Source: Eledone cirrhosa
Taxonomy: Eukaryota
Length of the DNA: 64,000 nucleotides
Assembly: GCA_964016885.1 (NCBI GenBank)
Contig: OZ024740.1
Location: 202,802,001 to 202,866,000 of the forward strand
Direction of reading: 5' to 3'
Shown here: positions 9,104-49,945 of the stretch, one piece after another
Layout: each line of letters starts with the position of its first letter
Numbering within the stretch: position 1 is the stretch's first letter
The notes under the pieces: generated by a model
Seen by the model: the letters and a program-made list of their open reading frames with translations, nothing else
Database searches by the model: none
Told to the model about the DNA's origin: nothing
Translations under genes and position numbers: made by a program

Positions 9104-9668
9104 ATTAAGAGAGTAAAACAAAGAATCCTTTAATACATCAAAAGTTTTTATTAGCCGACAATGTTTCGTCCTATTAAGGACTCATCAGGGCAATCAAAAC
9201 ACCAAGAAGTAATATCGGCAGATACAAGCCGGATTGTTTAGATTTAGACAAACCAAATTTGTTTAGATTTAGGTTAGTTGCTTTGGACTTTATTTGTAAT
9301 ATGGTTCTTAATGTTATATACATCCTTAATTACACTTATTATATATTTTTATTATTTTTTATTATTTTTATTTTTATTTTTATTATCATATATTTTTGCA
9401 AGACTTTAGTGTATGTACACTCCATATTCTTCGGAGATTCCGGCTTGTATCTGCCGATATTACTTCTTGGTGTTTTGATTGCCCTGATGAGTCCTTAATA
9501 GGACGAAACATTGTCGGCTAATAAAAACTTTTGATGTATTAAAGGATTCTTTGTTTTACTCTCTTAATTTTTTGGCTCTGTTTAACTGCATTGAGCTATA
9601 CCTTTTACTGTCATTTCTATAATACGAAGAGGGTGTTTAACTCCAACACGCTCCAGTATTCTAATCCT
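9104..9668 (+). mobile_element. PLE-type terminal repeat with inverted partial copy
   Basis: Inverted arms 9104-9233 / 9439-9568, tail to 9668, (TA)n both sides, HHR in each arm. Confidence 0.8.
9481..9518 (+). ncRNA. Type I hammerhead ribozyme (inverted copy at 9154-9191, minus)
   Basis: GCC-CTGATGA-GTCCT(TAAT)AGGAC-GAAA-C(ATT)GTC-GGC; intact core, GUC triplet. Confidence 0.9.
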
Positions 9669-9851
9669 TATATATATATATATATATATATATATATATA
9701 TATATATATATATATATATATATATATATGTGTGTGTGTGTGTGTGTATGCATGTATGTATGTAGAAGGTAAACAAAAATAAAAATAAAAAAAACAGTAC
9801 AGTATATGGAAGGAATATATTAGTTTAACGCTTGAAATAGCAAGAAGAGGG

Positions 9852-9887
9852 TCTTAACATTTCGGATGTTAGCCCTTCATCTGAAGA
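9852..9887 (-). ncRNA. Minimal, degenerate HHR-like motif
   Basis: TCTT-CAGATGA-AGGGCTAACATCC-GAAA-TGTT-AAGA; flanks related to 15445-15516 and 50340-50390. Confidence 0.5.
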
Positions 9888-10559
9888 AAGAATGAGAAAT
9901 AAGAAAGACTGAGGAGACGGGCGGGGCGGACTCGGAAAAATTCTTTTTAGAGAAAAATAACAATTCATTTCTTCGTGTTGCCATCTCTTGGAAAACTATT
10001 GATGCTAGCGTTTTGTGTATGATGTACTTTTTTTTTTAGAAAAGTGTATAATGGAACGCGTCTATCGAATACTGAAGCAATATCAGTAAAGTGACCATGG
10101 TAGGGATTAATAAGCAAACTGTTAACAAACTCATTAAAGTCGGGTGGCTTATTACGGGTATATATATATATATATATATTGCGTAATAGATGTATACCAA
10201 CGGAATGATGGTAAACTTTAAGGAAAGAAAAACGTGTTTGTTTATGTTTTTGACCCAGAGACGAACGAAGCAGCATCTAAACTATAATAAAGTATGGAGT
10301 GCGAGATTGCGTCCAGAATATATTTTTTTTATCCCGTTTGTAAAATAAGTTGGATTACTTTGAATAAATAATGAATGAATATTACATAATTTATCTACTA
10401 AATTTCGCTATTCTTGATTAAATATAAATAATATTGTTGCTTATTTTAAGATTCACTTCTTTAAAATTTTCAAATGTCAACACTTCCGGTTAGCGATCGC
10501 TTAAATAAACATTCATATATTTCCGTCACTAATGTTCTCCTAATGCAGTTTATATATAA

Positions 10560-11344
10560 CTAGCAGCAGTACCTAGCGTTGTCTGGGTAGGTAAAATAAT
10601 ATCTGCTTTAATGAAAAGGTGTTAATCTTAGCGACTGCTTCTCGATGACTCATCTATGGCCACACACAGGCCATGCGGGTGATGACCTCTATCACTGAGA
10701 AACGCAGGTGACTTACGAAGGGGTATGCTGGGGGAGGGAGTTTCGAATTTGAACGAAATCGGTTGAAAAATGTGGGAGCTAAAGCCGAAAAGGCGCAAAT
10801 TTGAGCGAAAAGGTGGTATTTTCGAATATTTAAGCGGCTGCCACGCCGTTCCTGAACAAATAATCCAAAATGTAAAGCCACTTTAAGACGTGCAATAATC
10901 AGATCTAGCATAGTGTAAAATTTGAACAAAGTAGGTTGATTAATGTGGGAGCTAGAGCCGAAAATTTGAGTCTAAAAGTGGTATTTTTGAATATTTAAGC
11001 GGCTGCCACGCCGTCCCTGAACAACAAATGCAAAATATAAAGCCATCACAGGATGTGCAATGATAAATTCTATGTCGCTTTAAATTTGAACGAATCGGTG
11101 GCAAAATGTGGGAGCTAGAGCCAAAAATCTTATTTTTCGATACCTAAAAAAGGGTGCCCTCCTATCGATTTTTATCTGCAGAATGACCCCGGAATAAAAA
11201 AGAACGATACGCTGATATATAGAAAACACTCCCCGATGACTAATCTATGAGCCTGTAAAGTTTCATGAAAATCGGTCGTAAGATGTAGGCCCCTATAGGT
11301 AATACACAGACACACACACATACTTAATTTTATATATATACAGA
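10560..11344 (-). mobile_element. Non-autonomous Helitron-like element
   Basis: Minus 5' TCTGTATATATATAAAA, 3' hairpin ACCCAGACAACGCTAGGT then CTAG, A|T target, internal duplication. Confidence 0.75.
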
Positions 11345-11754
11345 TATCGTCTTTTTTTAATGTACCATGGATTACGTTACTGATTACATAAGACAATGTA
11401 ACGCAGTCTTCGTTCAATTTCTGTGTATATTGTCAATTACGATTTTATTTGATGTATCATATGTACATGCATATATACTTGCGTATAATATCAATATGCA
11501 CACTACACATGCTAGCAGAAAACCACCCGCAAGGTGGTTTTTCTGCTAGTGTTGTTATAATGCTTCACCGTCTGAGTCATTTACTCCGTTCCCGCACCAC
11601 CAACATCAAAGATGGAGGAGTTGTATAACGTCGAATGCTTTTCTCATATTACATCATGATTAACATTGCAGAATGACCAAGTGGTGAACCAAGTAGTAAA
11701 CCACCAAATTTATATATATATATATATATATATATATATATATATATATATATA

Positions 11755-11875
11755 CTATCATTAAAGCCCGGCGTTGCTTGGGGTCAGTAAGTTACCAAAG
11801 TTAGGTTGCACCACCCATTTTATGGCAGCACTTTTTTGTCTGCCAGGCACTGGGTGAATGAATTGCAGACCTGGA
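11755..11875 (-). mobile_element. Helitron 3'-end fragment related to 1242-1360
   Basis: Near-identical CATTAAAGCCCGGCGTTGCT...GCAGACCTGGA with an internal deletion. Confidence 0.7.
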
Positions 11876-48411: not shown

Positions 48412-48637
48412 ATATATATATATATATATATATATATATATATATATATATATATATATATATGGATATATATATATATAATTAATATATATAATTCATT
48501 TAATTTTGGTTATATATATATATATATATATATATATATATATATATGCAAAGTTTTATTTAAAGCCAGCTTCCTACCTTAATGGTCGCTTATATTTATG
48601 GTACGTCAAAATTATTTATAAAACTGTTTATATATTG

Positions 48638-48703
48638 TATTTTATCTGACGAAGGCATGCCATATTTTTAATATGGTATCCCTGAAATATGTATAATGAA
48701 ATA
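48638..48703 (+). ncRNA. Type I HHR
   Basis: TATTTTAT-CTGACGA-AGGCATGCCATATT(TTT)AATATGGTATCCCT-GAAA-TATGTATA-ATGAAATA; flanks homologous to 19703-19863. Confidence 0.85.
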
Positions 48704-49496
48704 AATATGGTTTTATATATATAGTTTCCATTTGTTTAATATCGTATATATATATATATATATATATATATATATATATATATATATATATATATATATA
48801 TAACCAAAATTAAATTAAGGGTGTCATGTCTGAGAGACATGCGCCATACCTACTGTAGAATATGCTCAAAGATTCCAATGAATAGATCCGAGCATGTGTG
48901 TGATTACACTCTTTACAAATTATCTCCTGTGATTGTTTCATATGTTTAGTTTAGATGTATATATGTCAATATCGATTTCTAGTTTATATATATATATATA
49001 TATATATGTCAATATCGATTTCTAGTTTATATATATCAACTAGAAATCCATATTGACATATATATATATATATATATATATATTTATAAATAAACATATG
49101 AAACAATCGCAGGAGATCATTTCTACTACCCTAAGTATTGAGTACTGTCCACCTGGTATCTCACCACACTTTCTTTGTTATATATATATAAATGATATGG
49201 GTAATATTGATATTATCCAATTACTAGTATGAGAGTTGCTCGATGTAATATATATATATATATATATATATATATATATATATATATATATATATACGTC
49301 TGTATACATATATGTATGTACGTATACATACATACTTACATTTAAGTAAGTGCCGTACTAAGAGTGAGAAATGAAATTTCGTTTTCATTTTATTTCAACT
49401 TATATATATATATATATATATATATATATATATGTCCAAATGCTCTGCTACCATCAACACTATACACACAGAGCTGGCATGTCTAAGAACTGACTA

Positions 49497-49552
49497 ACTG
49501 CCTGATGAGGTCATAGCCATTCAATGGCTATCATCGAAATATATATAGCAGT
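49497..49552 (+). ncRNA. Type I HHR (same family as 16756-16811)
   Basis: ACTGC-CTGATGA-GGTCATAGCCATT(C)AATGGCTATCATC-GAAA-TATATATA-GCAGT. Confidence 0.85.
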
Positions 49553-49614
49553 AAATAAAGGATTATGAGTTCATGCAATTGACTTATGTTTCATCACTAT
49601 ATATATATATATAT

Positions 49615-49945
49615 TTATTATTATGTAATAAACAACATAAGGCAATTATTCCATTTACCAGTGGTTTCTTAAAAGCAAAAGATTTTGCTTTCAATCCTCA
49701 GAATGAAAAAATTCTGGTCTGTTTATTGAAATTGGATTTTAAAAAACAATTTTAAAATCCAATTTCAATAAACAGACCAGGATTTTTTCATTCTGAGGAT
49801 TGAAAGCAAAATCTTTTGCTTTTAAGAAACCACTGGTAAATGGAATAATTGCCTTATGTTGTTTATTACATAATAATAATTAAGCTCTGTTACCTACATA
49901 GAGCACTCTTTTTTCCTGGACTTTTCCGACGGAATTACTTCATTC
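49615..49945 (+). mobile_element. Fold-back insert: 130-bp arms, 5-nt loop, tail on the right
   Basis: Arms 49615-49744 / 49750-49879, loop AACAA. Confidence 0.85.
49789..49842 (+). ncRNA. Type I HHR (inverted copy 49652-49705, minus)
   Basis: CATT-CTGAGGA-TTGAAAGCAAAA(TC)TTTTGCTTTTAA-GAAA-CCACTGGTA-AATG. Confidence 0.85.

Follow-up and report, generated by a model that had tools for sequence, protein, structure and literature searches.

A 64,000-nt stretch of Eledone cirrhosa DNA (contig OZ024740.1, positions 202,802,001 to 202,866,000; here called the window), drawn from a 3.0-Gb genome and rich in (TA)n arrays, carries inserts that, judged from their sequence, are the 5'-truncated ends of Penelope-like elements (PLEs). 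Each family has two fixed outer ends facing (TA)n, and we consider it likely that the insertions were made by twin priming, in which a TA repeat would be cut on both strands by an endonuclease of the element and a separate cDNA of the element RNA would be primed from each of the cut ends. An original prediction had described one polarised inverted layout in ten inserts, which we label A (9104), B (12776), C (13400), D (19430), E (32658), F (43434), G (43894-46385), H (44080), I (46440) and J (49615). Masked self-comparison of the window detected inverted arms at all ten places, mostly 94-100% identical, and in nine of them one arm lies against (TA)n and the other continues into a tail, as had been described. 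The exception is G, which belongs to a different class made of two inverted tail-arm units.

Below, S denotes the fixed outer end where the tail begins (its base), and T the one at the tail tip. Genome searches gave 102-3896 first-look candidates for each arm, of which 40 were scored and 30 loci kept, and 116 longer stretches were fetched around family copies in the same genome. The query for A spanned the tail, so the A sample is biased toward tailed copies; the other nine queries were confined to the arm.

Two fixed outer ends in each family

The extent to which arms reach into the family tail is sharply bimodal. Among 418 distinct arm ends from the ten families, 207 fall at S and 183 at T, with 9 between and 19 that read through or are internal; 320 of the 390 ends at S or T have at least 8 nt of TA directly outside. 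The distance from S to T is fixed within a family and ranges from 41 to 143 nt: 41 nt in I, 68 in G, 70 in J, 82 in B and F, 89 in D, about 100 in A, 138 in E, 142 in H and 143 in C.

The tails consist of element sequence. Tandem units were found in I (3285 nt), B (~500 nt, with no open reading frame [ORF] found) and C (2807 nt, deleted), and read-through copies occur in A, B, C, H and I. Those of A, C and I run into the ORF, whose start codon in I lies within the tail. The read-through copies establish that each tail opens the next tandem unit, and, with the conservation within families, that the tails are neither unique, as had been proposed, nor host DNA. The inserts had also been called unrelated, whereas the families are related, being ends of PLEs.

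Pairing of ends and lengths of arms

A two-armed insertion nearly always joins an S end to a T end in head-to-head orientation. The 114 pairs of this orientation comprise 106 S+T, 5 S with a partial tail, 3 S+S and no T+T, although independent ends would yield S+T in about half of cases. Same-family pairs in symmetric 3-kb loci face outward in 88 cases and inward in 3, far beyond chance, and hammerhead cores are essentially confined to the sense strand. Genome copies thus bear out the proposal that the sense strand reads toward the tail and that both 3' ends face outward, which is also seen in the window from paired hammerhead-like cores (9484 plus and 9188 minus; 19763 plus and 19619 minus; 49793 plus and 49701 minus) and, in the insert at 46440, from a GIY-YIG ORF remnant on the minus strand that reads toward the tail.

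The lengths of the two arms are independent. For this comparison 72 of 90 S+T pairs from eight families were kept; G and B were excluded because their references are palindromic or tandem, and pairs with a junction gap above 30 nt or an unmeasured arm were dropped. The S arm is longer by more than 30 nt in 19 pairs and the T arm in 30, and the two lie within 30 nt of each other in 23. In 11 of the 72 the tail-less arm is longer by more than 200 nt, at the extreme 2512 against 239 nt, and lengths are uncorrelated among asymmetric pairs (rho 0.19, p 0.19). What had been called spacers are for the most part not loops but 5' sequence by which the longer arm exceeds the shorter. In addition, of 173 ends that lack a full partner, 16 face an inverted partner consisting of tail sequence only, hence no palindrome; two such units lie in the window, at 13932-14051 and 46231-46385. 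Since the S arm is often longer and partners may be tail-only, two separate starts are needed.

Of 592 subfamily-diagnostic positions compared between the two arms of an insertion, 69 (12%) disagree, compared with 25-48% between insertions, and a few pairs are discordant at 3-7 such sites; in overall sequence the arms of a pair differ by about 1-6%. The diagnostic sites suggest that the arms come mostly from one source RNA or locus. Central gaps in the 72 pairs, approximate because taken from BLAST, run from -21 to +29 nt with a median of -1, and some junctions hold a short filler that repeats adjacent sequence. Apparent fixed 5' stop points, clustered near 130 nt in J, 175 in D, 195 in E and 217 in H, were set aside as confounded by query length.

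Identity of the families

The original prediction had assigned the inserts a PLE origin, and reverse transcriptase (RT) together with a C-terminal GIY-YIG endonuclease (EN) is indeed linked in the outward sense to A, C, D, E, I and J. One family I copy matches RVT_1 (E 2e-11) and scores above the cut-off for GIY-YIG, a family A copy has a below-cut-off GIY-YIG match (E 0.0025) and a YxDD motif, and homologous ORFs lie upstream of C, D, E and J arms. A search of PDB sequences with a family A protein gave no match.

Using the motif list of PMC8557442 (section 11), we would assign A, C, D, E and J to the Hydra clade, an assignment made by motifs. Family A has the full set (DKT, an RWK-like motif, the CxCX5C linker, no CCHH, and CxxC and CxH flanks), E and C have most of it, D has DKT and no CCHH, and J has a Hydra-type endonuclease. 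Family I, with DKG and a CCHH core, is of the CCHH type and not Hydra. Neptune, considered as the identity of A-E and J, was dropped on these motifs. In J, loci L411-L414 also contain an internal duplicate of the terminal arm 1.1-1.3 kb upstream in the 3' untranslated region (UTR).

Sense-strand hammerhead cores were found by pattern in 35/39 copies of A, 20/33 of C (a variant core), 29/37 of D, 36/40 of J, 20/33 of F and 2/31 of G, with at most one antisense core; the same scan found none in I, E, H or B. We interpret these as a type I hammerhead motif on the sense strand of the pseudo-long terminal repeat (pLTR), that is, as predicted ribozymes. An Rfam scan of the window is dominated by microRNA models on simple repeats, with two sub-threshold hammerhead matches among the matches listed; RF00163 scores 31.7 bits against a cut-off of 34.

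The small number of long copies fetched for B, F, G and H yielded no contiguous ORF; an ORF near H copies probably comes from a neighbouring insertion and was not counted. These four are tied to PLEs by their S/T ends, a putative tail stem and, in F, G and H, hammerhead-like cores. The proposed stem is a complementary motif pair that starts 5-11 nt past S. In nine families 131 of 160 tailed copies carry it, compared with 0 of 23 in I and no more than 1.2% of shuffled tails, the pattern having been drawn by eye from these same tails. The stem would link B, F, G and H to Hydra-type machinery, and it may position S. The inserts do not resemble foldback DNA transposons or miniature inverted-repeat transposable elements: their termini differ (S versus T), their lengths vary and the linked ORFs encode RT-EN.

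A proposed mechanism for paired insertion

With S and T as the two outer ends, the remaining steps can be proposed. By analogy with an anole element in vitro, one target strand would prime RT at S and the other at T. As the arms share subfamily alleles, the same source RNA would usually serve both, the second copy displacing the first, and a minority of insertions may use two RNAs. Both copies would then stop early, and host end-joining would fuse them with little overlap or a short filler. The palindrome would in this case be the stretch covered by both copies and not a fold-back. The scheme recalls L1 twin priming, reportedly described by Ostertag and Kazazian in 2001, in which both target strands are said to prime cDNA and a 5' inversion is joined internally. 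In L1 the second start reportedly depends on chance annealing and the two pieces share no stretch, whereas here the second start is fixed and the pieces overlap by up to kilobases.

Several points weigh against this scheme. No intermediate has been observed, and priming, displacement and joining are all inferred. In vitro, the start site did not differ between strands in the available part of PMC11167929, a result that does not account for S+T pairing. Some 146 of the 173 unpaired ends have no detectable partner, in part owing to short context, later insertion or deletion. The 23 near-symmetric pairs among the 72 also fit self-priming, and the queries favour such lengths. No clean empty site occurs among the fetched loci, and target-site duplications (TSDs) are unreadable in (TA)n flanks. 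Finally, the window junctions are those of the assembly.

This last point, and the proneness to artefact of perfect palindromes beside long (TA)n, would suit hairpin chimeras formed at TA repeats during library preparation or assembly. Such an origin strikes us as scarcely credible, as family-specific S/T rules hold at more than 100 loci, arms differ by ~1-6%, tails are matched by read-through copies, and independent restriction-site-associated DNA sequencing (RAD-seq) reads from a related organism follow the A arm past S into TA, in 76 and 61 reads, and contain one joint between opposite strands, in 3 reads. RAD-seq pile-ups at 9495 and 9566-9569 were not used as evidence for S; located at TTAA sites, they probably reflect restriction digestion.

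The original prediction had offered two routes, priming from both ends of a (TA)n break or snap-back of nascent cDNA, each followed by joining at the truncation point. Priming from both ends and the joining accord with our data; snap-back does not, given the 19 of 72 pairs with longer tail-less arms and the 16 tail-only partners. In snap-back, which has also been proposed in PMC3846280, one cDNA or antisense RNA would fold at its end and copy itself, and the near-symmetric 23 of 72 pairs, some with centres of 0-10 nt (32658, 49615), and the alleles common to both arms would follow naturally. A fold-back copy must, however, be a subset of the copied strand, so it cannot yield an inverted arm with sequence missing from the other arm, which is seen both ways, nor tail-only partners without a palindrome such as the two units in the window, and some pairs are discordant at 3-7 diagnostic sites. 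Simple snap-back is thus excluded as a general route and highly improbable as the explanation, with the symmetric subset still compatible with self-priming. A better rival, which we nonetheless hold to be unlikely, is EN-mediated resolution, in which priming would occur once, at T, the endonuclease would later cut the cDNA or an intermediate at the tail base, leaving an S end joined to the second strand, and a template switch back to the RNA would give the second arm. It has been proposed as the source of the tail (PMC8557442), the D. virilis endonuclease requires the tail for cleavage (as cited in PMC11167929), S sites are AT-rich, and both strict S+T pairing and shared alleles would be accounted for. 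Yet an extra template switch is needed for the longer S arms (19 of 72) and the tail-only T arms (16), and two RT starts at these positions have been seen directly in vitro (PMC11167929). Twin priming remains the likelier source of the paired insertions.

Comparison with known systems

An inverted 5'-truncated copy, a one-sided tail and (TA)n targeting have been published for EN-containing (EN+) PLEs (Craig et al. 2021, PMC8557442; Arkhipova et al. 2013, PMC3846280), so that the architecture is known; what the original prediction lacked is that both outer ends are family-fixed element sites. As described in these two papers, EN+ PLE units resemble ours in their head-to-head arms, tail at one end, pLTR hammerhead, tail overlapping the ORF start, (TA)n location and absence of a readable TSD. 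They differ in that published tails are 30-40 bp, compared with 41 nt in the CCHH-type I and 68-143 nt in the other nine families, and in that the "inverted partial copy" is here often the longer arm, or is cut to a few bases. The Hydra clade of PMC8557442 shares RW[K/R], DKT, CxCX5C, the lack of CCHH, CxxC/CxH flanks, hammerheads and (TA)n with A, C and E, and in part with D and J; our units reach ~5 kb with long 3' UTRs, whereas those published are generally below 3 kb.

The closest biochemical counterpart is PAc (Poseidon, Anolis), whose purified protein cleaves and extends both strands, has two internal RT starts bracketing the tail and is a predicted dimer (Frangieh et al. 2024, PMC11167929). 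Two internal starts around a tail, cutting and extension of both strands and an AT-rich target are common to both systems. In PAc the starts are closer together, and the accessible part of the paper draws no link to inverted insertions and describes no arrangement of one start per strand. Animal non-LTR retrozymes, described as PLE derivatives that are non-autonomous (bioRxiv 10.64898/2026.07.22.740005), resemble B, whose non-coding tandem unit of ~500 bp inserts with S/T ends like those of the other families; B differs in that the pattern scan found no hammerhead core in B arms.

PLE inverted insertions and microsatellite preference have been named an open question (PMC8557442). In the literature searched, with subscription papers and the supplements of PMC8557442 and PMC11167929 outside its scope, we found no report of the S+T rule or of tails above 100 nt, nor of PLE twin priming, RT slippage or stutter, or octopus Penelope hammerheads. 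New here are the pairing counts, tails of up to 143 nt and the (TC)n and (CA)n runs, described below, that repeat an arm's last bases. The S+T rule, the independent lengths and the tail-only partners predict precisely what the in vitro assay of PMC11167929 should show: a single start site on each strand, and arms copied from one RNA.

Repeat runs at arm ends

At 30 of about 390 ends, a non-TA dinucleotide run of 4-37 units precedes the TA array, and the unit nearly always equals the arm's last bases: TC at the S end of C and F and the T end of E, CA at the T ends of J, D and G, and TG at the S end of D and the T end of F. One GA run was discounted as belonging to a neighbour's end. None of the six TC-run ends with a known partner has a complementary run directly at the partner end, and two CA/TG cases have 1-3 complementary units there. 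Throughout the fetched DNA, TC ahead of (TA)5 is a single unit in 92 cases, 2-4 units in 7 and 5 or more in 48; GA (193 seeds) never exceeds 2 units, and CA reaches at least 10 units in 39 of 589 cases and TG in 1 of 299.

That these runs arise from RT stutter at initiation is doubtful. Replication slippage at the array boundary would explain them too; the same repeat order is common in human DNA, which is not known to carry PLEs, and G-containing mismatches would favour slippage. For mammals, the accepted view is that AT-AG and AT-AC compound repeats originate by slippage (PMC2644718). We offer, as a tentative idea, a telomerase-like start in which the PLE RT, before moving on, would copy the same pair of template bases at S or T again and again, at most some dozens of times. 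It would thereby write (TC)n, (CA)n or (TG)n and probably lengthen TA arrays; insertions would then leave fresh microsatellite targets at each end, a feed-forward process that could explain much of the dinucleotide load. If it is true that the RT writes the end runs, a telomerase-related enzyme would be showing repeat addition during transposition.

The fetched DNA, which is enriched for these families, has 2750 TA-array edges, of which at least 1070 fall in 60 recurrent fixed-end clusters, and such recurrence at TA edges indicates that elements nest in each other's TA flanks. In the flanks at L044, L344, L091, L215 and L116, a unit of 20-35 nt made of TA and a few other bases is repeated, resembling reiterated target duplication, and flank repeats of the same sort are listed for the region of L410.

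Inserts in the window

In A (inverted arms 9106-9233 and 9439-9566, 100% identical), the tail-less arm (9106-9235, minus) has its S end against (TA)n 9058-9105 and a hammerhead core at 9188-9164. Filler of ~20 nt (9236-9254) separates it from the tailed arm (9255-9669, plus), with S at 9567, a core at 9484-9508 and a ~100-nt tail to T; this is probably a Hydra-clade PLE 3' end. B (12858-12929 and 13220-13291, 97%) begins with an 82-nt tail (12776-12857) and tailed arm (12776-13223 in all, minus), followed by a tail-less arm (13220-13291, plus) whose S end lies against (TA)n.

C, putatively of the Hydra clade, has a palindrome at 13548-13915, with a 143-nt tail (13405-13547) and tailed arm on the minus strand (13405-13827 in all) and a tail-less arm on the plus strand (13810-13915, inner boundary approximate). 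Next to it, and absent from the original prediction, is a non-palindromic unit of another hammerhead family (13932-14051), in which a tail-only piece (13932-13978, minus) is joined to an S-ended arm (13999-14051, plus). D, also assigned to the Hydra clade, has a palindrome at 19519-19863; its 89-nt tail (19430-19518) and tailed arm span 19430-19687 (minus, core 19619-19579) and its tail-less arm 19688-19863 (plus, core 19763-19803). The palindrome of E, another Hydra-clade candidate, covers 32661-33055, with a tail-less arm at 32660-32855 (minus) and a tailed arm at 32860-33194 (plus) that includes a 138-nt tail (33057-33194).

F has a gapped palindrome (43453-43694). Its tail-less arm (43434-43506, minus) is internally ~17 nt shorter than its partner, the tailed arm with an 82-nt tail (43517-43814, plus), which has a hammerhead-like core and no linked ORF found. 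The G locus (inverted repeats 43898-43990 and 46224-46316, 96%) consists of two inverted copies of one small unit, a tail-only piece plus an arm, with the true tail pieces facing inward. The left copy (43898-44002) joins a partial arm (43898-43948, minus) to a tail-only piece (43951-44001, plus), and the right copy (46231-46385) joins a tail-only piece (46231-46263, minus) to an S-ended arm (46266-46384, plus); comparison with other family copies identifies 46317-46385 as the 3' half of the G hammerhead arm up to S and not as tail. H (44083-44272 and 45471-45657, 94%) keeps the general layout, with a tail-less arm at 44083-44272 (minus) and a tailed arm at 44273-45709 (plus) that has a hammerhead-like core near 45556, read from the sequence; its tail stops after 49 of the family's 142 nt.

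I (46488-47196 and 47688-48403, 97%) has a tail of ~41-48 nt with the ORF start codon and a tailed arm (46440-47709 together, minus), a C-terminal CCHH-type GIY-YIG ORF remnant at 47114-47788 and a tail-less arm at 47688-48411 (plus). J has a palindrome at 49619-49875, comprising a tail-less arm (49619-49749, minus, hammerhead-like core 49701-49665) and a tailed arm with a 70-nt tail (49750-49945, plus, core 49793-49829), and in longer copies a Hydra-type endonuclease lies upstream.

Other repeats in the window

Further lopsided palindromes occur at 34580-35000 (arms 34723-34803), where (TC)n separates the left end from (TA)n, and at 52861-53102 (arms 52925-53097). Single hammerhead-bearing arms lie in TA arrays at 16711-16852, 49456-49597, 40464-40589, 41198-41244 and 48571-48743, the last three resembling family D.

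In a second class of inverted repeat, a TA array is bracketed by inverted copies of 54-128 nt of its flanking DNA, with ~88-98% identity (13307-13360 and 13932-13985; ~32521-32596 and 33265-33338; 23502-23581 and 23656-23736; 52483-52610 and 53360-53487; and 43898-43990 and 46224-46316). In fetched loci it is seen at 6 of 482 arrays, 4 of them strongly, compared with 0.4% in shuffled pairings, and it is consistent with true fold-back at self-complementary (TA)n.

Tandem arrays are present at 1528-1989, 50620-52130 and 62812-64000, with periods of ~91-93, ~45-50 and 52 nt. Broken non-LTR retrotransposon frames lie at 8341-9057, 19963-20565 and 26800-30000, the last interrupted by long trinucleotide repeats.

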